DNA of 64,000 nucleotides, taken from NCBI GenBank assembly GCA_002011115.2, contig MTME02000038.1, positions 10,475-74,474 on the forward strand, in the 5' to 3' direction. Origin of the DNA: Candidatus Pyrohabitans sp. JdFR-17. Its GTDB lineage: Archaea; Hydrothermarchaeota; Hydrothermarchaeia; Hydrothermarchaeales; BMS3B. Below, piece after piece: positions 4,819 to 60,423 of the stretch. The notes beneath the pieces were generated by a model. That model did not search any database and was not told the DNA's origin. It saw only the letters and a program-made list of their open reading frames with translations. The position numbers were made by a program, and so were the translations under genes. How positions within the stretch are numbered: position 1 is the first letter of the stretch; each line of letters begins with the position of its first letter.

Positions 4819-5511
4819 CTACTTAATACCAAGGTGTGTTTCAACTTCTTTTTTCTTTTTATCTACTTCATTGATATTCATTGGATTAGGTGCGAGAACC
4901 AGCAATATTCCACCATCACCGAGCTCCTCTATTTTCCAGGCTGGAGCAGAGAGGAGCTTTTCTCTGCCAATTTTTTGAACAAACACACGAGAGAAAAAGT
5001 TTGCCCAACAGAGATGTCTAATATTTCCTGAGAGGATTTCATCTTCGGATGGGATCTCTCTCCAACCAATCCCATATTCCCCAAATCCATAAATTGGACT
5101 AAGATACTCGTACAATTTTCTACCCAATTTGAGTATAATTTCAATGTTTGTTTCCGCTTTTTGATTCCAGTCTGGGATATCTCTAAGATAAACTCTATTG
5201 AAAGTTAGACTAATAATACCCAATTTTTCATCATTTGTTGGTTTTGGACGTATTCCGAGGGTAAAACACATTTTCCCATGCCATAAATTGATGGCTCCCC
5301 CACCATCTATAGAAATTGTATGGATCGCTTCAGATAATGGACGCTCCCAAAACCAATCACCCTTTTTATCTGACCAATATCCACTCTTAAAATAATCCCC
5401 TGGCTCGTAAACACATCCTGCTTTCAATAATACATCTAATACTCCTTTAATAAACCTTTGATTGCAATCTATCGACTTAATATAAAAAAATATATCACAG
5501 TTATCCGACAT
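4819..5511 (-). CDS. candidate immunity protein for the upstream toxin tip
   Basis: The ATG overlaps the toxin stop (TAATG). AT-rich like the toxin tip. The C-terminal WANFFSRVFVQKIGREKLLSAPAWKIEELGDGGILLVLAPNP is reminiscent of some bacterial immunity-protein families (from memory, not searched). Confidence 0.65.
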   Translation of the reverse strand: MSDNCDIFFYIKSIDCNQRFIKGVLDVLLKAGCVYEPGDYFKSGYWSDKKGDWFWERPLSEAIHTISIDGGGAINLWHGKMCFTLGIRPKPTNDEKLGIISLTFNRVYLRDIPDWNQKAETNIEIILKLGRKLYEYLSPIYGFGEYGIGWREIPSEDEILSGNIRHLCWANFFSRVFVQKIGREKLLSAPAWKIEELGDGGILLVLAPNPMNINEVDKKKKEVETHLGIK

Positions 5512-8500
5512 TACTGGATCACCTCTACAATAACACCTTTTTCATATTCTAACCATGTCTTAATATCAGGGTCTACTTTTCCTTTAAATATAATAATTTT
5601 TTTAGCAGTTGGGTCATAAGCGTTAAATCTCTTAATTTTGTTGCCTAAATCACTCTTTAACATATTATAAGCATCAGAACCTGGTGTGACTCTAGTCCAA
5701 TCTATATTCTTTGCTTCAATTATTGTTCCATCCTTGAGTAGAACATCAATATCTGTTGATCCTTCAGGTGTAATTATATATTTCCCAAGCCATTCAATAT
5801 TATTAGCATCTTTTGTAACAGCCACTTCAGCCTCGAATATCGCCCCTTTATCCCCTGTTTCAATTCTGTGCACCAATTCTTCATAACCTTTAATTCCTTT
5901 CAGTTCACTTAAAATCTCATCTAAGTATCTTGTGGATTTTGTCGGAAATCTCTTAAGGACAAATTCAATAACACTGGATATCTTATTTTTAAATGCTTTA
6001 GCAAACTTTCCGACTTTAACCACTGTCGATTCGGCATCTCCTATCAAAGGTACTAAACCAACCGCAGTCAGAGCAAAATCCAACTCATCTCCTCTTATAA
6101 CAGTGCTGGGTAAGTCTCTCAAATCTCCAATAACGAGGTAGCCGCTTAATATCCAGCCACTCAAGTATGCAAGATTTCCATGAGTTGGGTCGTCGAGTCC
6201 AAAATCACCTAGTACAAATCCCCAGAATGCTTCCTCAATCCATCCAGGTTCAGGTTTGAATGGATTAGTACCCTGTTCTAACTCCAATTTGTCATTAAAT
6301 CCATCGCCATCGGTATCCGCCTTTCTGGGGTCGGAGTTGTACTCGTAGTGGTAGCCGTCGTAGGGTGGCCAGCCGTACTTCCAGCGCAAGCTGTTGTACA
6401 GAAGCTTGTTCCAGTAGTCGTAGACCACGCTGCCCATCTCCTCGCCGTCGCTCAAGCCATCGCCGTCTGTGTCGGCGTTGAACGGGTCTGTGGTGACGTA
6501 GGCGTGCGGAAACGCTAAGCGCATGCCGTGGATCTCCTCATAGTCCGTTAGGCCATCGCCGTCGCTGTCCAGGTACCTAGAGAAGTCCCTGCAGGCGTTG
6601 TTGTTGCCCTCATCCAGCTCCGCTATTAAATTAGCCGGGTCCACCTTCACGTATATCCTCTCAACTCCTGCCTCAACCACCCACTCTATCGATGCGACCG
6701 CAGAGCTCCCTGCGGCGATGCTGGCTATGCTGGTGCTGCCTATTAGCTCTGAATCAGCGTAGAAGCTAACCTCAACGTTGGAAGCGGCGCCCTTGCCGAG
6801 GTTGTGGACCCTCGCCTTAATCCTCATCTTCTCCCCTGGCTTAAGCACCAGCTCCGGCTTCTCCCAGTCCACGTACCACTGGCTGAACCACTTGCTGGGC
6901 GATGCGACGCTGAAGGTGGAGAGGTGGGTTACATTGCCCCAGACGTAGTGCTCCTGCTCGTTCACCCCCTGAACCTCCACTAAGCGAAGGCTGTTGTCGC
7001 TCTCGTTGTAGTAGAACATCCGGAGCTCAGAGACGTTTTCCACCTGAGCGGGGTCGTAGTATATCTTTATGTACGCCGACTCAACCCTGGAGGCGGTGGA
7101 TACCTCAACCACCTTTACCACGCCGCTGAGCTGGGAAAGCAAAACACTGGCGTTTTCGGCTTCTGCTATAACAATGCTCTTGCTGGCGTCACCCACCGCA
7201 GTTATTGTTGCCTCAACTCCAGCGGAAGCGTTGACGAAGCTTTGGGTGAAAGTCTCGTTGCCGTCGGCTAAGCCATCGCCATCGCTGTCGCTGACAAGCG
7301 GGTTGGTGCCCAGCCTGAGCTCGCTGTCATCGCTAAGGCCGTCGCCGTCGGTGTCATCGCTGAGCGGATTCGTGCCGATGCTCACCTCGTAGCCATCGCT
7401 AAGCGTATCGCCGTCGGTGTCATTGCCTAGCGGGTCAGTGCCCAGAGACTGCTCCTGCAGGTTGCTCAGGGCGTCTTCGTCCAAATCTTCCTCCGCATCA
7501 CTCAAGCCATCGCCGTCGGTGTCGGCAGAGGTGGGGCTTGTACTTGTGCTGAACACCTCAAAGGAGTCGGTTAAGCCATCGGCATCGGTATCGCCCGAGA
7601 AGGGATTCGTGCCGAGCCTGAACTCCTGCAGGTTGTTCAGAGCGTCGCCATCAAAGTCTTCCTCGTCGTCGGGTATGCCGTTTCCTGCCTCGCTTTCTGG
7701 CGTTAGAGAGGAGTCGGAGTCGGCGTTTAACGGGTCAGTGGCAGTCACGTTTACCTCGTACCAGTCAGGCAGATTATCGCTGTCCACCAGCAAAGTTTTC
7801 TCCCACTCCGCAGAGTTGCCTGCCAGGTCAGTGGCTATGACAACAAAGCGGTTAACACCAAGGGAGATGCTGGCCGTGTATACTGCGGAGCCGTTTTCAA
7901 GTGCAACGGGCTCGCCATTCACCGTTACGCTGGCATTTTCGTTGACAGAAATTAAAAGCGGATACTCGGGGTTGTCTATCGTGGGATAGAGGTTCAACTC
8001 GGTTATGTGCAGCTCGGGTGGTGTGTTGTCGATGGTTACGCTTGCTGAAGCGTTTGCCACATTCCCGGCCTTGTCCACAGCCACGAGTTCGATGACATAT
8101 GCGCCGTCCTCGTATGCGGAGGTGTTCCAGGTGAAGCTGGTCTCATTCTCGGCAACAACTGTGCCGTTGATCAGGAGAATGAATCTGTCGAGGAAGAGGT
8201 CTTCTGCCTTTGCTGTGATGTTTACAATTCCCCTCAGAATGGCGCCGTCGAGTGGGAAAATTATCTCCGCGCTGGGCGGGGTGTTGTCCACGGTAACCGT
8301 AATCTCCGTGGATGCGGCGTTTCCTGCTTTATCCAGAGCGGTGAGGCGCAGGGTGTGGTTCCCATCCCTGTAGGCGGAGGTATTCCAGAGGTATGGCAGG
8401 GCGGTGCTCACGTTAACGCCGTCTATGGTGAGGGTGATTGAGTGCAGGTTGGCGTCCCTAACGAAGCCGTCAACCTCCACAAGGCGCCGCACAAAGGCTC

Positions 8501-53774: not shown

Positions 53775-55232
53775 TCTCACAACCCTTTGTGAACTACTCA
53801 CCGTCAAAAGCGGTGAGCTTCTGCCTTCGGTGGCTTCTCCAGCCACCTCATCGGCAGTTCGGGCAGGTTCACGGCTGCCCCCGCTCCTTTGCGGAGCACC
53901 TGGTTCAAGCCTCGCCACATTATGTTTCTGGCTGCGTTGATGTCTCTATCTTCGGTGTGCCCGCAGTCCTGGCATGCAAAGTTTATGCCATCAACTTTCA
54001 CCTTGCGCGAGCCGCAGGCGGAGCACAGCGCCGTAGTACCATTCTCGCTGATTATTACTGCAATGTTTCCGGCCTCAAGAAGCTTCAGCCTTAACATCTC
54101 CGCCAGCTCCCTGAAAGCCCATTGATGCACCCTCTTTCTTAGTCTTCTTCTTTGATTGCCTCTGAAGTGCTCCTCTCTAATATGCTCTGGCAGGCCGATG
54201 AATACCAGAGCACCGGAGTAGCTATTTGCCACAAGATTTACCAGCTTCCGCCTGAAGTCCCTGGCAAGGTTCTTTCGCTTCCTTCTGAGCTTCCTGAGCA
54301 CCTCGAGCTTGCCCAGCCTCTGGAGCCTTGCGATGCGGTTGTTCAGCTCGCGCATCCTCGCAAAGAAGCAGGCGAACTCTTCTCTGTGCAGGAGGAGAGC
54401 ACGGCTCCCCTCCTCGCCAACCTCGTGCACCGCAATGAGCATCCTCATGTCAAGGTCAATCCCCGCGACGGAGCGGGGCTTTATGCTGACTTCCTTCTCC
54501 ACAACGACATGAACCTCATACCTTTTGAGTTCCAAGTTCCACACTATCTGAAAGCTCTTCACCTCCCACTCTCTCAGGTGCTTCTCAGCATAGGGATAGG
54601 AGTGAAGAGGAATGTCAACCCTCTGCCCCCTCTTTAGTGTGGAGATAGTAAGCCATAACTTGAACTCCTTAGCACTGCGTGAGAACTCAACTTTGATTTC
54701 ACCCATTCGCCTGTCGATCATCACAGGTATTTTGTCTTTCACCCCGGGCGGCTGAGGCTCTCTTGCGAGCAACTTTTCAAGCTTTTTCTTCAGCTTCTTG
54801 CTGTCTTTTACCTCAAGCTTCTTCCTGAGCCTTTCCACCCGCCTCTCCCACTCCACGTGTAACCTCAGGTAGCTCCTGTACATCCAGAGCGCTGTATCGC
54901 GGCACGCCTGCGCAAAGGCGGAACTCAAACCAGTCTTTGCCTGTATCTCCTTCCTGAAACTCTCCGCTCTGGCTCGGCTCACAACATTCTCCTCTACAAT
55001 CTTCTCCAGGTAGAGCTGAACGCCGTAGGTGAGCCTCGCCATGAGCCTGTCCAGAATGCAGAGCTTCCCCCTGGTTATTTCCTCAGCCACAGGAATCTTG
55101 AGTGTTTTCCTGACCTTCATGGACGTATAGAATCCAGTGTAGTTCCACTTAAGTCACTTTGCTTGGAGCAGAAGAAAAGTGAAAGGTGGCAACGGCATTC
55201 ATCACACCGTCAAATACGGCGTGTCTTCAGCC
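53775..55232 (-). mobile_element. IS200/IS605-type element carrying only tnpB (no tnpA); ends approximate
   Basis: Similar subterminal hairpins on the same strand: ctcaccg-tcaaaag-cggtgag (53797-53817) and cacaccg-tcaaata-cggcgtg (55203-55223). They flank the TnpB ORF. Confidence 0.65.
53804..55120 (-). CDS. tnpB: TnpB (IS605 OrfB-family RNA-guided endonuclease)
   Basis: GIDLD (RuvC-I). Zinc ribbon CSACGS...CQDCGH. TEDRDINAARNI (RuvC-III). Confidence 0.9.
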   Translation of the reverse strand: MKVRKTLKIPVAEEITRGKLCILDRLMARLTYGVQLYLEKIVEENVVSRARAESFRKEIQAKTGLSSAFAQACRDTALWMYRSYLRLHVEWERRVERLRKKLEVKDSKKLKKKLEKLLAREPQPPGVKDKIPVMIDRRMGEIKVEFSRSAKEFKLWLTISTLKRGQRVDIPLHSYPYAEKHLREWEVKSFQIVWNLELKRYEVHVVVEKEVSIKPRSVAGIDLDMRMLIAVHEVGEEGSRALLLHREEFACFFARMRELNNRIARLQRLGKLEVLRKLRRKRKNLARDFRRKLVNLVANSYSGALVFIGLPEHIREEHFRGNQRRRLRKRVHQWAFRELAEMLRLKLLEAGNIAVIISENGTTALCSACGSRKVKVDGINFACQDCGHTEDRDINAARNIMWRGLNQVLRKGAGAAVNLPELPMRWLEKPPKAEAHRF

Positions 55233-55270: not shown

Positions 55271-56545
55271 ATGACTTTAATGCTTGAGGCAAGGCGAGGC
55301 GTTGTCAGCGAGGAAATACGCCAGGTGAGCAGAGCAGAGGGAATAGACGAGAAGGTTCTCCTCCGAAGGTTGGCAAAGGGAAGGGTGGTTATACCCAAGA
55401 ACAGCTCAGGGAGAGAATTTGCGCCAGTTGGAATAGGCGAAGGGCTTAAGGTGAAGGTGAATGCCAACATCGGTACATCGCCGGAGCATGTCAGCATTGA
55501 AGAAGAGCTGGAAAAGGCTAGAGTAGCGGTGAAATATGGCGCAGATACGCTTATGGACCTGAGCACCGGCGGGGATTTGAAGAAGATAAGGAGGGAGATT
55601 CTCAAGATTCCTGTACCTCTGGGCACTGTGCCTATTTATGAGGCTGGCGTGCTCGCGGCGAAGCGAGGTAGCGTAGTAGACATGAGCGAGGATGAGCTCT
55701 TCTCAGTTATAGAGGCTCAGGCGAGAGAAGGCGTGGACTTCATGACGGTGCACGCCGGAATTACGCGAGAAGCTCTCGAGGCGCTTGAGAAGAGCCCCCG
55801 CGTTACCGGCATAGTGAGCAGGGGTGGAAGTTTTCTGGCAGCGTGGATGAAGCACAACGAAAGGGAGAACCCCCTGTATGAAAACTTCGACTACCTGCTG
55901 GAGATAGCCAAAGAGCACGACGTTACCCTAAGCCTTGGCGATGCTCTGCGCCCGGGTAGCACAGCCGACGCTACCGACGAGGCGCAGCTCCGCGAGCTAA
56001 TGATTCTGGGCAGGCTGGTTAAGCGCTGCCGAGAAGCTGGAGTGCAGTGCATGGTTGAAGGGCCAGGGCATGTGCCTCTGAACCAGATTGAGGCAAATGT
56101 CTTGCTGGAAAAGCGCCTCTGCGACGGCGCGCCCTTCTATGTGCTCGGTCCCCTGGTTACCGACATCGCCGCCGGCTATGATCATATAGCAGCGGCGATA
56201 GGCGGGGCAATCGCCGCCTACGCGGGCGCAGACTTCCTGTGCTACGTCACGCCCGCGGAGCACCTCGCCTTGCCCAGCGTCGAGGATGTGCGCGTTGGCG
56301 TTGTGGCGAGCAAAATCGCTGCCCATGCCGCAGACCTGGCGAGGGGAAAATACAGAGAGATAGACGAAGAGATGTCAAAGGCGAGGGTTGAGCTCAACTG
56401 GGAGAAGCAGTTCAAGCTTTGCCTGGACCCTGAGCGGGCGATGGAGTACCGCAGGCGAAGACTGCCCAAAAAGAGCGACGCGTGCACAATGTGCGGCAGC
56501 TTCTGCGCCATGAAGCTAACGCAGGAGTTTTTGGGTGGGGGTTAG
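55271..56545 (+). CDS. thiC: phosphomethylpyrimidine synthase ThiC
   Basis: TVHAGIT, VSRGGS and the C-terminal cluster motif CTMCGSFCAM. The overall layout matches ThiC. Confidence 0.95.
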   Translation: MTLMLEARRGVVSEEIRQVSRAEGIDEKVLLRRLAKGRVVIPKNSSGREFAPVGIGEGLKVKVNANIGTSPEHVSIEEELEKARVAVKYGADTLMDLSTGGDLKKIRREILKIPVPLGTVPIYEAGVLAAKRGSVVDMSEDELFSVIEAQAREGVDFMTVHAGITREALEALEKSPRVTGIVSRGGSFLAAWMKHNERENPLYENFDYLLEIAKEHDVTLSLGDALRPGSTADATDEAQLRELMILGRLVKRCREAGVQCMVEGPGHVPLNQIEANVLLEKRLCDGAPFYVLGPLVTDIAAGYDHIAAAIGGAIAAYAGADFLCYVTPAEHLALPSVEDVRVGVVASKIAAHAADLARGKYREIDEEMSKARVELNWEKQFKLCLDPERAMEYRRRRLPKKSDACTMCGSFCAMKLTQEFLGGG

Positions 56546-56589
56546 ATAGCCAAATATCTTAAAATAAAGTAATTGTTTTCAATTTTTTA

Positions 56590-56964
56590 TTATTTTATTC
56601 TATTAAATGGTGGGAGTTCCAAATGCTTCTTTTCGAATTCATCTAAAAGATCTCCCTCATATTCTTCATATTTGTCAGTTATAATAAACCTAAATTCCAC
56701 TTTTGCATCGGGAAAATTTTTTATATAATTCCTAAGTCTCGGTCTTACATCATGAAGCCAGATATCGTCTTTTTTAACGTCCTCGAGCTCCTCAAAACAT
56801 GATAATCTATCATAAAAATCCCCACAGCCAATGTACAAAATATCTGTTTCACCTTTTAATCTTTTAATTGGCAAATTTGTTCTAAGTTGATAAACCCCTT
56901 TTTTCTTCGGCACTTTCTCTAAATTTTCATCAGTAATTTCTGTCCATTCCGACCATCTCTGCAT
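56590..56964 (-). CDS. small GIY-YIG-like nuclease-domain protein
   Basis: KKGVYQLR...TDILYIGCG fits the GIY-(x10-11)-YIG spacing. Strong SD GGTGGAGG lies upstream of the ATG. AT-rich. Confidence 0.6.
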   Translation of the reverse strand: MQRWSEWTEITDENLEKVPKKKGVYQLRTNLPIKRLKGETDILYIGCGDFYDRLSCFEELEDVKKDDIWLHDVRPRLRNYIKNFPDAKVEFRFIITDKYEEYEGDLLDEFEKKHLELPPFNRIK

Positions 56965-57131
56965 TTAACCTCCACCTTTTTAATAAATACTCTCTACAAC
57001 TCTCCATTATCTCAAGAAACTCTTTATCTTTTTCCAATAATTCTTCTATCTCTTTAAGAGCCACTTCCTTTAGCACCTCTATTTTTCAAGCTTTCCATTT
57101 TTTAACACATATCTAATGAAGGTCTCCATTT

Positions 57132-57305
57132 TCAAGCCTCTTGTAAATATTTTCTAATCATGCGCATAGTTTCTTTTGCCCATATACTCCCTATGTCACT
57201 GATATTTTCTGGTTTTTCACGTATTTTGCCTGCCGACTTCGGTAAATATATTCTCTCAAATTCTCTAAGAGATCTAATCACACGCCTCTTTTTATTAAAT
57301 CTCAT
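57132..57305 (-). CDS. 57-aa basic protein (below the ORF-track cutoff), translationally coupled to the upstream gene
   Basis: Hand translation: MRFNKKRRVIRSLREFERIYLPKSAGKIREKPENISDIGSIWAKETMRMIRKYLQEA. Its ATG overlaps the stop of the 434-aa ORF (ATGA). Confidence 0.3.
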   Translation of the reverse strand: MRFNKKRRVIRSLREFERIYLPKSAGKIREKPENISDIGSIWAKETMRMIRKYLQEA

Positions 57306-58606
57306 TTCTGGCCCTCCTTATAATAATTTGCAAAAAATTGTGGATTTAGCTCCGCCTTAAAATAATATTTTCTTTTAATCCATATAAAACCATCGCCCTT
57401 AGAGATTACTGCTACATCAATAGGTCCACCCACAGTTTCACTTTCCATCGAAAATTTTCGTTTCAGAGATGTAAGATTAACAAGCGACTCTGCCATTGCT
57501 GCAAGTTCATCTTTTGGAAGCATCGAAACCACACTCGTAATTGGACTAATATACGTTTCATGTCTAAATTCTTCTAATCGTTCTTTAAGATCTTTGAGTA
57601 TTTTATTTCCAATGTCCAATAATTTATTTTTCAACCTAATTTTTTCTTCTTCAGTGTATTTATCTAAATCTTCGATAACTATTTCTGCATACTCTTTGAA
57701 AATCTGTGACAAATAATCTTCTTCTACTACTATATACAAGGGATCAACTCCCTGCATAAATGTATCAACCATTTCCCTTTGAGCAAATGGAACGATTAAA
57801 GCATCGGTCTCGTAATCAATTTTTGCGGATATATGTTTTTTATGCTTTAATCTGTTTTCAATTATTCCATCAATATGAAAAGAAATAAGTGATGGAAAAA
57901 TATCCTCTTCTCCAAAACCAGCAACTACTATGCCAGATGTATTTTCATTTCCGATACCTTCTGGAAATTTTGAAAATAAATTTCCTGATATTTTCCTCAA
58001 TTGGTTGTAATGAATTTCTGATATTGGCAGCTCCTCAAAAATATCTTCTATAGCTTTATCAATTATTTTAATATATTTTTTAATAATATTTTCGCTAAAA
58101 TCCTCTGGAATAGTCGGAATACTATCAGCTTTTTCCCATTTTTCATAATGTTCTTCTATTGTTTCTGATACTATCTTTTCAACGACCTCATCTAGGATTT
58201 CTCCTTCCTCATCAATTATAGAGTGGACTTTTTCTACAATTTTACTTCTAATAAATTCAAAATATCCGTATATATAATTTCTCAGATATTCCTCCTGTAC
58301 AAAATCGGGAAACATAGGATTGCCATTATCTAAAAATGATATAAAGTCCATAGCATATTCTTCTAAAGTGTTAAAACTCTTTTTCCCCAATTTATTTCTG
58401 TAAACTTTAATGATTGTTTCCCAAGGGACACCCATAAATGTAGCATTTCCATAAATCATTATTCCAACAGGATGATATTTGGACAATGCAAAAAGTTTGT
58501 TAACTGAGGTAAATATTTTCTCGCCAGATTCACTCACTGCAGTAACTGCACTATCAGATGCAAGAGCTATTGCCTCTTTGTTCATTATTGCAATTTCAGA
58601 AGTCAT
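57302..58606 (-). CDS. proteasome-beta/HslV-like (Ntn-hydrolase-like) protein with large helical insertions
   Basis: After the Met, TSEIAIMNKEAIALASDSAVT...NKLFAL...GIMIYG lines up by eye with T1...D17...K33 of HslV/proteasome beta. Also GIVVAGFGEEDIFPSLISFHIDG and a C-terminal GGPIDVAVISKGDGFIWI. Confidence 0.65.
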   Translation of the reverse strand: MTSEIAIMNKEAIALASDSAVTAVSESGEKIFTSVNKLFALSKYHPVGIMIYGNATFMGVPWETIIKVYRNKLGKKSFNTLEEYAMDFISFLDNGNPMFPDFVQEEYLRNYIYGYFEFIRSKIVEKVHSIIDEEGEILDEVVEKIVSETIEEHYEKWEKADSIPTIPEDFSENIIKKYIKIIDKAIEDIFEELPISEIHYNQLRKISGNLFSKFPEGIGNENTSGIVVAGFGEEDIFPSLISFHIDGIIENRLKHKKHISAKIDYETDALIVPFAQREMVDTFMQGVDPLYIVVEEDYLSQIFKEYAEIVIEDLDKYTEEEKIRLKNKLLDIGNKILKDLKERLEEFRHETYISPITSVVSMLPKDELAAMAESLVNLTSLKRKFSMESETVGGPIDVAVISKGDGFIWIKRKYYFKAELNPQFFANYYKEGQK

Positions 58607-58676
58607 CTAATATCCCTCTCAATATTATCCTGCTCAAATTTAAAAGTATTAATTGCAGACGTTTCACAAAAATACA

Positions 58677-58840
58677 TCACCGCCCCTCCACCACCTTTAT
58701 CTCCACCTCCGTCAAGCCATACAACCTGTAGACTATCTGGTCAATCAGCCTATCCTCTCTTCAATCCTCTCAAGCAACGGTTTCAACTGCCTGTGGAATC
58801 GAGGAATGCTCAGCTTTTCCTCAGCTCTTTGCTCGCCAGG
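58677..58840 (-). pseudogene. frameshifted C-terminal relic of an RM-type (type IIG/BREX-like) DNA methyltransferase
   Basis: The minus strand reads ...EKLSIPRFHRQLKPLLERIEERIG-stop/shift-DRLIDQIVYRLYGLTEVEIKVVEGR-stop. The D.lVY.LYGLTeeEI.iVE tail is the hallmark C-terminus of such enzymes. Confidence 0.5.
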
Positions 58841-58923
58841 TCATGCGCTCAGCCAGAAAGATTGCCAGAAAAGACTAAATTGAGGATTACGATTGAAAAA
58901 TCAAAGTTTCGGAAGTTTTTTGC

Positions 58924-60423
58924 TCATCCCTGCCTCTTCGCCACGTACTCCTTCTGCATCGCATCACGGTAGTACTCTGGCAAGACGTTGAAGGCGCAGA
59001 ATGGCACAACGCGCAGGTCTGGCGTAACATAGTGGATGGTACATCTCTTTACGCGGGCGATGTCGTAGTTGTACAGGTCCATGAAGTGCATCATCCCTAT
59101 AAACAGGGCGTTGTGGTGGAACTTCGCAAGGGCGCGGTAGTCGTGGCGTACCAGCGCAGCGAAGAGGAGCGAGTACACATTCAGACCCTTTGGCGCTTTG
59201 CCCGCGTCGATAAAGCGCCTTATTCCTGAGATAAGCTTTATCCTCTCCACCAGCTTGTTGCTTCCGCCATTGATTCGCTCTGCGCTCTCGTTGAGGTACT
59301 CCAGCAGCCCCTCAACATCTATAAACCGCGTTATCGGCACAACGCGATTGCCGTCTCTGAAGACGTACGTCGCCATACCGCACGCGAAATGCGTTGTAAG
59401 CTCGTACTGCTTTATCCCCGTGAGTGCCTCGACTATGTGGGAAATTGCAGTAACGCTCGGCACAGGGTAGAAGTCCTCCCGCGCTATTGCTCCAGCGGTC
59501 TGCTCCTCAAGAGCGCGAATAACATCAGGTATGGTTATGCGGTGCTTCTCCCGCTCCTCCTGAGGCATTCTACCAACAAGCGAAACAGGCTGGAAGTTGA
59601 CCCCGCGCACCACATCTATATTATTGAAGGCAAACTCCACTATATACCCGAGCTCATGGTCGTTGACGCCTCGTATCACAGTAGGCACCAGCACCAGCTT
59701 CATCCCTGCGCTTCTCGCATTCTCCAGTATCTTCGGTATGTAGCGGTGATTCTTGGGATTGGTTTTAGCAGTGACGCCATCGAAGCTTAAGTACACCACT
59801 CCTGCCCCTGCCTCAACTATCGCCTTCGCAAGCTCAGCGTCTTGAGCAAGCTTTATCCCGTTGGTGTTGAGCTGCACATGGTCAAAGCCCAGGCGTTTTG
59901 CGAGTTTAATAATCTCCACTATATCCTCGCGCAGCGTGGGCTCGCCGCCGGTGATCTGCAGAGCATTGCACGGCACAGGCTTCTGTGCCTTAAGGTAGCG
60001 CAACATCCGCTCTATGTCCTGGAGAGAGGGCTCGTAAACATAGCCCGCTCGCTCAGCGTAGTAGAAGCAGTACCAGCACGTTAAGTTGCAGCGGTTTGTC
60101 ACCACTAAATTGGCGAGAGCAGTGTGAGAGAGGTGGGCCTCACAGGGACCGCAGGACAGGGGACAGTGCTTCTCTAGCTTCGTCGTGGGGTTGTCAAAAC
60201 CCTCGCCATCGTGAGCAAATTTGCGTGCCTTCTTGTAAAGCTCATAATCACCCCAGTATAAATCTTCAAAGGTCCCGTGCTTCTCGCAGTGCTTGCGTAT
60301 GTAAACCCTGCCATTGCGTTCAAAAATCTCAGCTTTAAGCAGAGCATGACATTCGGGGCATAACGAAGCAGTGGTGGTGATGAGCCTTTCAGCATGCGCC
60401 TGCTTCTGAGCTACAAGCTGCAT
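58924..60423 (-). CDS. radical SAM enzyme, candidate tetraether-lipid synthase (Tes/GDGT-MAS-like)
   Basis: CNLTCWYC (CxxxCxxC). N-terminal CPEC...HCEKHG metal-binding module. About 500 aa. The Tes-like assignment is from memory of the family architecture. Confidence 0.75.
   Translation of the reverse strand: MQLVAQKQAHAERLITTTASLCPECHALLKAEIFERNGRVYIRKHCEKHGTFEDLYWGDYELYKKARKFAHDGEGFDNPTTKLEKHCPLSCGPCEAHLSHTALANLVVTNRCNLTCWYCFYYAERAGYVYEPSLQDIERMLRYLKAQKPVPCNALQITGGEPTLREDIVEIIKLAKRLGFDHVQLNTNGIKLAQDAELAKAIVEAGAGVVYLSFDGVTAKTNPKNHRYIPKILENARSAGMKLVLVPTVIRGVNDHELGYIVEFAFNNIDVVRGVNFQPVSLVGRMPQEEREKHRITIPDVIRALEEQTAGAIAREDFYPVPSVTAISHIVEALTGIKQYELTTHFACGMATYVFRDGNRVVPITRFIDVEGLLEYLNESAERINGGSNKLVERIKLISGIRRFIDAGKAPKGLNVYSLLFAALVRHDYRALAKFHHNALFIGMMHFMDLYNYDIARVKRCTIHYVTPDLRVVPFCAFNVLPEYYRDAMQKEYVAKRQG

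Follow-up and report, generated by a model that had tools for sequence, protein, structure and literature searches.

We analysed a 64,000-nucleotide (nt) stretch of contig MTME02000038.1 from the archaeon Candidatus Pyrohabitans sp. JdFR-17, hereafter the window, in which an AT-rich islet on the minus strand carries a gene for a 434-amino-acid (aa) protein resembling proteasome beta subunits and, directly behind it, a gene for a 57-aa basic mini-protein. We refer to these two genes as the cassette. The islet is conspicuous in the composition profile, with a GC content of 0.28-0.35 over 56600-58600 compared with 0.52-0.60 in the genes on either side, thiC and a radical-SAM gene. Both the profile and the coordinates of the open reading frames (ORFs) bear out the AT-rich minus-strand block that the original prediction, made from the sequence alone, had placed between these two genes, and the small ORF does start on the stop codon of the large one, as had been proposed. 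The cassette and its flanks are laid out as follows.

57302-58606, minus strand: 434-aa ORF, a predicted proteasome-beta-like N-terminal nucleophile (Ntn, Thr1) hydrolase with two helical insertions, of the PMI type (Proteasome homolog with Multiple Insertions); putative catalytic component of the cassette
57132-57305, minus strand: gene of the 57-aa basic mini-protein; its ATG overlaps the TGA of the 434-aa gene (ATGA), with a Shine-Dalgarno (SD) sequence, AGGAGGG, in front
55271-56545, plus strand: thiC, one flank of the AT-rich block, GC up to 0.60
58924-60423, minus strand: HMPTM-type radical-SAM gene, the other flank of the block

An AlphaFold2 (AF2) model of the 434-aa protein, built from 40 homologues, reached a predicted local distance difference test score (pLDDT) of 84.9 and a predicted template-modelling score (pTM) of 0.80. 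When this model was searched with Foldseek, the top matches were 20S proteasome beta subunits and Anbu (E = 1e-5, probability 1.0). The alignment covers the whole chain, and the template-modelling (TM) score normalised to the target is only about 0.5 because of the insertions in the 434-aa protein. Viral 'proteasome beta' and HslV-like models also match the fold, a viral proteasome beta with a target-normalised score (TMt) of 0.69. At the level of sequence, there are weak direct matches to the Pfam family Proteasome and to HslV in PHROG; scans of Pfam, NCBIfam and PADLOC gave no significant family for either the 434-aa or the 57-aa protein, and searches of PDB sequences with the 434-aa protein, both single-sequence and profile, returned noise, with proteasome beta below threshold at E ~1. 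From the model, we are confident that the 434-aa protein is a proteasome-beta/Anbu-type Ntn hydrolase with a four-layer alpha-beta-beta-alpha core.

The expected active-site residues are conserved among 270 diverse representatives of the family. The chain begins with Met1-Thr2 in 242 of 270 N-termini, and Thr2 is found in 256 of 258 aligned sequences. The equivalents of Asp17 (D18; 269/271), Lys33 (K37; 270/271) and the oxyanion glycine Gly47 (G53; 239/271) are likewise maintained. The motifs TSEIAI, ALASDSAVT, NKLFAL, GIVVAGFGEEDIFPSL, PFAQ and GGPIDVAVISKGDGFIWI are all present in the translation, and the residues that underlie them are invariant, or nearly so, in the 270 homologues. As read from the sequence, the threonine would become residue 1 after predicted removal of the methionine, and a propeptide appears to be absent. 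An alignment to HslV/proteasome beta made by eye had singled out the same Thr1, Asp17 and Lys33, and structure prediction had been named beforehand as the check on an Ntn core. The AF2 model, the Foldseek search and the conservation of residues all agree with that alignment, and the core held, together with its Thr1, Asp and Lys residues and its helical insertions.

Other parts of the active site depart from the proteasome. The Gly128-Ser129-Gly130 (GSG) loop is absent from the alignment of homologues, where the conserved residues P273-F274-A275-Q276 stand in its place, just as first noticed, and the residues Asp166 and Ser169 that would support Thr1 are not found either, the C-terminal segment reading E390-T391-V-G-G against D-S-A-S-G-G. 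The 434-aa protein is a divergent member of the family, and its assignment at the level of the fold is unaffected by these loop differences.

In the AF2 model, strands S1-S5 (residues 4-53) are followed by H1 (62-73), H2 (81-93), a set of insertion helices (101-209), S6-S9 (224-273), H3 (278-285), a second insertion (289-362), H4 (365-385) and S10-S11 (396-411), with no insertion between S3 and S4. The first insertion, at residues ~95-222, consists of five helices after H1/H2, and the second, at ~287-363, of two long helices between H3 and H4. Two helical insertions had been claimed from the translation; they are present, but are somewhat smaller than the 150 and 100 aa given at the time. Since they lie at the positions of proteasome ring contacts, the insertions point to a monomer or small complex rather than a barrel, and the enzyme probably works in one of these forms. 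Within the first insertion, residues 84-162 gave repeated weak profile matches to the repeat helices of cullin-3 (E ~0.04-0.06, the best PDB sequence match), which are probably compositional or helical-repeat noise.

The mini-protein partner and the mobility of the pair

The 434-aa protein has more than 6,446 homologues of ~432 aa, all labelled 'hypothetical', with which it shares 58-89% aa identity across Planctomycetota, Bacillota, Methanoperedens and Altiarchaeales. An exhaustive profile search returned 5,903 clusters at 50% identity, 3,373 of them at E <= 1e-30, and cluster look-ups for accessions of the family gave only 'hypothetical protein' entries. PHROG 5990 (phrog_5990), of 'unknown function', matches the protein over its full length (E = 1e-122). 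In a survey that reported 22 new proteasome homologues, among them the PMI groups, Fuchs, Alva and Lupas (Bioinformatics 2021; PMC8665760) found no genomic context or co-occurrence hinting at function. Beyond that paper, our search of the literature found no characterised defence system based on a proteasome-, HslV- or Ntn-like protein, and no follow-up of PMI-4 or of WP_000123148.1, an E. coli member of the family. The system had been put forward as undescribed. The protein family itself is catalogued, as PHROG 5990, and fits PMI-3/PMI-4, but its mini-protein partner and its behaviour as a cassette are unreported in the 2021 paper.

The small gene is a constant companion of the large one. In every Pfam-annotated neighbourhood that we fetched, the big gene is followed by one of 56-62 aa that overlaps it slightly or is separated from it by a short gap. 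A profile hidden Markov model (HMM) finds a homologue of the mini-protein in 88 of 171 loci, which is nearly all of the cellular ones, and four cellular loci that apparently lacked the small ORF do carry it, in-frame stops in the big gene or the edge of the contig having hidden it. The divergent clades of viruses, prophages and E. coli have an ORF of 49-71 aa at the same downstream position. The mini-protein has a median length of 62 aa and a median net charge of +5, and its conserved core can be written as S(80%)-x-x-E(73%)-[FY]-x-[KR]-x-[FY]-[FYL]-P(95%) ... G(84%)-x-x-L-A ... L; the aromatic-Pro segment is kept as F-x-P, FFNLP or FFQLS in the divergent clades.

Both genes carry the marks of shared history and of constraint. 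Pairwise identities of the big and small proteins are correlated (r = 0.73, Mantel p <= 0.001, n = 82), and both genes are under purifying selection, with a median dN/dS of ~0.15-0.16, a rough ratio given that dS is near saturation in many pairs. Between the window and its closest relative, the cassette locus L012, dN is 0.081 and dS 1.12 for the small ORF. The ~57-aa ORF is thus a near-universal, translationally coupled and co-evolving partner of the big gene, from archaea to E. coli, and its downstream position, the correlation and the dN/dS values together uphold the suggestion that it is a real, co-conserved gene.

A profile search with the mini-protein returned just 52 standalone, unnamed proteins of 46-96 aa, with no fusions among the matches. 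Set against thousands of homologues of the big protein, these 52 entries indicate that the mini-protein is grossly under-annotated. One example comes from the enterotoxigenic E. coli (ETEC) strain ETEC-2265, where an unannotated 49-aa ORF, MSLKQAYERTQPKSINDFFQLSTSGKSRRTVTSQSNFFTKLNKTLPAQS, was missed by the annotation pipeline PGAP (L181:9264-9413; NZ_CP023346.1, ~1793133-1793282). It sits 24 nt downstream of WP_000123148.1 and is likely the E. coli version of the mini-protein; the two genes together span L181:7957-9413. At three other loci, the big gene contains a single in-frame stop and the mini-ORF downstream is intact: L025:8001-9308 (TAA at codon 43), L032:3657-4940 (TGA at codon 59, replacing an invariant Trp) and L073:8001-9296 (TAA at codon 87). 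By their sequence, these read as early pseudogenes of the enzyme only. The bias of nonsense mutations toward the big gene is not significant, because that gene presents a mutational target ~7.5 times larger.

The two genes form an autonomous cassette that moves horizontally. At least 492 cassette loci are present in 185,579 species-representative genomes, spread over many bacterial and archaeal phyla, and 129 further loci were counted in IMG/VR viral contigs, 13 in phage records and 10 in plasmid records. Among complete E. coli genomes, 22 of 5,426 have such a locus. The cassette has been exchanged between domains at 60-70% identity, and its GC content lies more than 3 points below that of the flanking DNA in 74/80 cellular and 74/79 viral loci (148/159 overall); the median GC offset in cellular loci is -10.7 points, and at no locus does the cassette exceed its surroundings in GC by more than 3 points.

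At several loci, restriction-modification (R-M) or other defence genes are found next to it: SIR2-HerA immediately upstream, with RhuM and HsdS in the same neighbourhood (L001:2920-5831); a PLD-SNF2 helicase with CopG, and an intact MmeI/Eco57I methylase directly upstream of the cassette (L178:551-7740); a Type ISP R-M enzyme immediately upstream (L182:1-4492); and, again immediately upstream, a PAPS-reductase with a ScoMcrA-SBD/HNH nuclease (L184:2869-4627). In the neighbour census, DNA methylases are clearly over-represented next to the cassette. One locus is an archaeal provirus with integrase and terminase, and another neighbourhood contains transposases. In 49 dereplicated viral loci, the adjoining genes are mostly CI-like repressors, integrases, ImmA-like proteases and endolysins. 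The cassette makes up the last two genes of streptococcal satellite phages, follows the lysin at the end of prophage Javan85, and lies between Q/Dam and the holin (the moron site) in a lambdoid Providencia phage and in the E. coli ETEC prophage. Positions between Q and holin, at the end of satellites and behind the lysin are classic sites of lysogeny-expressed cargo. The R-M and defence neighbours, the prophage and satellite cargo positions and the plasmids all support the mobile, conflict-element setting that had been anticipated from the window.

The landing site and the neighbouring genes in the window

Four further features lie between the radical-SAM gene and thiC.

58607-58676, minus strand: upstream leader of the cassette, with a putative promoter and ribosome-binding site of its own
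58677-58842, minus strand: decayed 3' tail of a DNA methyltransferase gene, apparently of the Eco57I/TaqI_C type; the frame ends in LIDQIVYRLYGLTEVEIKVVEGR and a stop codon, with further stops upstream
56990-57131, minus strand: remnant of a 47-aa ORF, disrupted by a frameshift here and intact in L012
56590-56964, minus strand: 124-aa ORF with weak similarity to DUF7508 and GGTGGAGG in front

Two comparisons define how the cassette came to lie here. The locus L172, from a related archaeon, is syntenic with the window, sharing the genes for inositol-1-P synthase, an NTP-transferase/CDP-alcohol transferase and the HMPTM radical-SAM protein at 81% nt identity. It has a homologue of the 124-aa gene and lacks the cassette, and its homology to the window ends at 58910 and restarts at 57153. 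Conversely, window 58842-56995 is 88.6% identical to 541-2393 of the donor-like L012, in a context that is otherwise unrelated. Together these boundaries indicate that the cassette and a scrap of methylase tail were inserted into a variable hot-spot. In L172, toxin-antitoxin pairs stand in place of the cassette, DUF4258+DUF2283 and MNT (Polbeta)+HEPN, at L172:3988-4469 and 5455-6152. This slot, with the HMPTM radical-SAM gene on one side and thiC on the other, is one in which small mobile modules land repeatedly.

The leader has a TATA-like element, TTTTAAAT, at 58638-58645 and a purine-rich segment, GAGAGGGA, at 58613-58620, ahead of the ATG of the 434-aa ORF; it falls inside the block shared with L012 and was therefore co-transferred with the cassette. 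Upstream of it, the methylase remnant had been described as a decayed R-M methyltransferase tail, and it does have a frame broken by upstream stops. Its L012 counterpart, a 219-aa ORF, begins with the end of a TaqI_C domain (E = 1.8e-4) and has the same tail. Judging from its sequence, LIDQIVYRLYGLTEVEIKVVEGR is a C-terminal tail typical of Eco57I/TaqI_C-type methyltransferases that would have been carried in with the cassette, and it is a relic of the donor's defence-island context, a non-functional part.

Downstream of the cassette, the ORF listing of the block gives a 48-aa GTG ORF after the 57-aa ORF and then the 124-aa ORF. The ~170 nt of broken frames noted between the 57-aa and 124-aa ORFs are indeed there, and a three-way alignment traces them to a 47-aa ORF (MKMETFIRYVLKDGKLGKIEVPKEVAFKEPGEVLEEYMEFLGIMEKL), which is intact at L012:2251-2394, out of frame by 1 nt in the window and truncated at L172:4865-4981. 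The window frame reads METFIRYVLKNGKLEK up to a stop and then shifts. The 47-aa ORF, which has no Pfam match and does not belong to the conserved pair, is found behind the cassette in two loci and in front of the 124-aa gene in two; it might be an antitoxin-like gene of small size or serve as a hinge for recombination.

In front of the 124-aa ORF stands the SD sequence that had been pointed out, GGTGGAGG. The 124-aa protein has only two homologues among 5.8 billion proteins, one of them that in L172. It has no Pfam GIY-YIG match at E < 1, its only match being DUF7508 at E = 0.0027; P0273 matches DUF7508 with E = 1e-5 and 25.9 bits, against a cut-off of 26. A profile search of the PDB with the 124-aa protein returned nothing relevant, and its AF2 model is of low confidence (pLDDT 54.6), a Foldseek search with that poor model giving no match. 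The 124-aa ORF is a resident of the lineage's variable hot-spot and lies outside the cassette. All-against-all clustering of 4,311 neighbour ORFs, together with a Pfam census of 150 nearest neighbours, found no third conserved gene; those 150 neighbours match 176 different Pfam families.

Two further observations concern insertion sites and nearby mobile genes. In L010 (Altiarchaeales), UbiA-family ORFs flank the cassette on both sides, at 5340-5870 (152-176 aa) and 7569-8447 (292 aa), and run on the strand opposite to it. These could represent a duplicated or fragmented prenyltransferase around the insertion; the idea that the cassette split a UbiA gene is not required, as one of the flanking ORFs is full length (292 aa). 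In the window, just past thiC, a 438-aa TnpB/Cas12f-like protein is encoded at 53804-55120 on the minus strand (Cas12f1-like_TNB, E = 1e-15; OrfB_IS605), by its sequence an apparent IS200/IS605-type element or OMEGA nuclease beside the variable region.

What the pair may do

We give about an even chance to the proposal that the cassette is a two-gene conflict module of the toxin-antitoxin or abortive-infection (Abi) kind, in which the mini-protein would be the cognate inhibitor or the substrate of the enzyme. According to this proposal, the cassette (57132-58606) and its short leader entered a thermophilic archaeon downstream of its HMPTM radical-SAM gene, and a fragment of the restriction-methylase gene of the donor came along with them. 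The mini-protein might bind the constitutively mature Thr1 site via its conserved aromatic-aromatic-Pro segment, either as an inhibitor that silences the peptidase or as a substrate reserved for it. The balance could then be upset by infection or when the element is lost, and the resulting proteolysis or connectase-like transpeptidation would stop the cell or the phage. Such a module would be cargo of prophages, satellites, plasmids and defence islands. In a more specific version, which we put forward only tentatively, the pair would be a mobile module for immunity or addiction whose monomeric Thr1 enzyme cleaves or transpeptidates its own mini-protein at the aromatic-Pro bond, as a switch that sets off phage exclusion or holds it back.

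Several points weigh against a conflict module. None of the four ORFs has a significant match in PADLOC-DB v2, the neighbour census is very heterogeneous, and some loci are lone insertions among housekeeping genes. The large gene comes first, which is the less common order in type II toxin-antitoxin pairs. With PFAQ in place of the GSG (Ser129) loop, the chemistry may differ from classical proteolysis, and the contact between the mini-protein and the Thr1 site is itself a proposal. In addition, the family fits PMI-4/PMI-3 by architecture and distribution, rather than by sequence comparison with the published representatives HDY66466.1/OGZ26396.1.

Alternatively, the chemistry could serve another end. 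Connectase is a monomeric proteasome homologue that acts as a ligase, cleaving between Asp and Pro in KDPGA and forming an amide with Thr1 (PMC7980362). The enzyme described here might likewise be no destructive protease but a transpeptidase or endopeptidase with sequence specificity, which would cut the mini-protein at its aromatic-Pro bond and release an active peptide, or ligate the N-terminal fragment onto a target for tagging or maturation. We think this unlikely, although connectase is the sole characterised insertion-bearing, monomeric proteasome homologue and ligates at just such a bond, the 95%-conserved proline follows two aromatic positions and is kept in divergent clades, the Ser129 loop is replaced, and insertions at the ring contacts suggest a non-barrel enzyme. 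The S3/S4 insertion and the loss of H1/H2 that connectase shows are not seen here, no conserved acceptor or target gene lies nearby, and any relation between the motif and the active site is conjectural; a ligase would, moreover, be compatible with a conflict role and not exclusive of one. We also regard as unlikely that the pair is a purely selfish addiction system, with a protease toxin and a labile mini-antitoxin that hitch-hike by post-segregational killing and play no anti-phage part. Such a system would account for the compact coupled operon, the patchy horizontal spread, the AT-rich signature, the presence on plasmids and the lone insertions among housekeeping genes, as well as for a hot-spot that L172 fills with DUF4258/DUF2283 and MNT/HEPN and for the occasional nonsense-inactivated big gene that keeps an intact small ORF. 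However, the nonsense bias lacks significance, and the plasmid records number only 10, against frequent prophage and satellite cargo sites and adjacency to R-M genes.

It is quite improbable that the enzyme is a housekeeping or phage-regulatory protease with no conflict role, be it a peptidase for stress or quality control that uses a small adaptor or, in prophages, a protease that controls lysogeny by cleaving repressors. Proteasome-family enzymes are usually housekeeping, some loci lie among core metabolism genes, and prophage cassettes often adjoin CI-like repressors and ImmA-like metalloproteases; yet the pair is rare and patchy (see the species-representative and E. coli counts above), foreign in composition and able to cross domains at 60-70% identity, and, as the same pair is found far from any phage, a role specific to lysogeny cannot be general. 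The original prediction had gone further and joined the Ntn protease and mini-protein to a GIY-YIG nuclease effector encoded by the 124-aa ORF. In the window, four ORFs are co-oriented and closely spaced, and a GVY...YIG...R...E...N spacing can be picked out by eye in the 124-aa protein. The gene is nevertheless absent from all ~160 other cassette loci, including L012, where the big protein is 89% identical, and has its homologue in the syntenic, cassette-free L172; a frameshifted, unrelated ORF lies in between, and neither Pfam, PDB profiles nor fold prediction supports a GIY-YIG domain. A conserved three-gene system is refuted by these data, and any joint function of the three genes is extremely improbable.

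Whereas the 2021 catalogue gave no clue to function, we find that the largest such family travels with a tiny, mostly unannotated partner gene, and that the pair is a self-contained mobile cassette, found at the cargo positions in which the immunity genes of prophages, satellites and defence islands are housed. An orphan family of ~5,900 clusters (50% identity) thereby gains a hypothesis that can be put to the test, for which the ETEC lambdoid prophage offers an E. coli representative. A defence or addiction module would bring a new enzyme superfamily into prokaryotic immunity, and a proteasome-based switch would be the first conflict system built on a proteasome homologue, common to bacteria, archaea, prophages and satellites. 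Were the enzyme connectase-like, the family could become a source of new protein ligases with sequence specificity. The results also point genome annotation to thousands of ~57-aa genes that have been overlooked.

Comparison with known systems

Among described proteins, those closest to the 434-aa family are PMI-3 and PMI-4, both of which have one insertion behind H1/H2 and another between H3 and H4; PMI-4, a large group, occurs in many bacterial phyla, Euryarchaeota and phages (PMC8665760). The 434-aa family shares with them a proteasome-like core with Thr1/Asp17/Lys33, the same two insertion sites, no S3/S4 insertion and no propeptide, and it too is large, with a broad spread over bacterial phyla, Euryarchaeota and phages that is shaped by horizontal gene transfer. 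Distribution and family size are a better fit to PMI-4 than to PMI-3. The conserved mini-protein partner, the mobility of the cassette and its cargo positions are additions made here that are not in the 2021 paper.

HslV, Anbu and BPH have the same fold and catalytic triad, but are compact (175-240 aa), ring-forming and encoded among chromosomal housekeeping functions, HslV being paired with the AAA+ protein HslU. The 434-aa family differs in its size of ~430 aa, in its insertions at the ring contacts and in the change of the GSG loop to PFAQ, and neighbour clustering and the Pfam census showed no recurrent AAA+ neighbour of the kind that an HslVU-type system would have. Connectase resembles the 434-aa protein as a proteasome-family Ntn enzyme with family-specific insertions, a Thr/Ser1 and no propeptide, which acts on a partner at an X-Pro bond. 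Unlike the 434-aa protein, which retains H1/H2, has no S3/S4 insertion in the AF2 model and spans a very broad taxonomic range, connectase lacks H1/H2, has a two-helix insertion at S3/S4 and often a C-terminal beta-barrel, and is non-mobile and restricted to methanogens; its substrate is MtrA and not a co-encoded mini-protein. The relation to connectase would thus be one of mechanistic analogy only, in the X-Pro bond and the monomeric state.

The proposed logic of the cassette has parallels outside the proteasome family. Among large-toxin/small-antitoxin Abi modules and protease-plus-substrate defence systems, RnlA-RnlB, Craspase-Csx30 and CalpL-CalpT each combine an enzyme with a small cognate partner, which either holds the enzyme in check or is cut by it. 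They would share with the pair described here a two-gene logic and carriage in defence islands or prophages, and differ in that their enzymes belong to other superfamilies; PADLOC includes no enzyme of the proteasome family. Compared with these protease and Abi modules, no sensor domain or signalling partner was identified for the 434-aa pair. The architecture of type II toxin-antitoxin and Abi systems is found here as well: a compact pair joined by ATGA or short overlaps, co-inherited, mobile and placed in variable regions.

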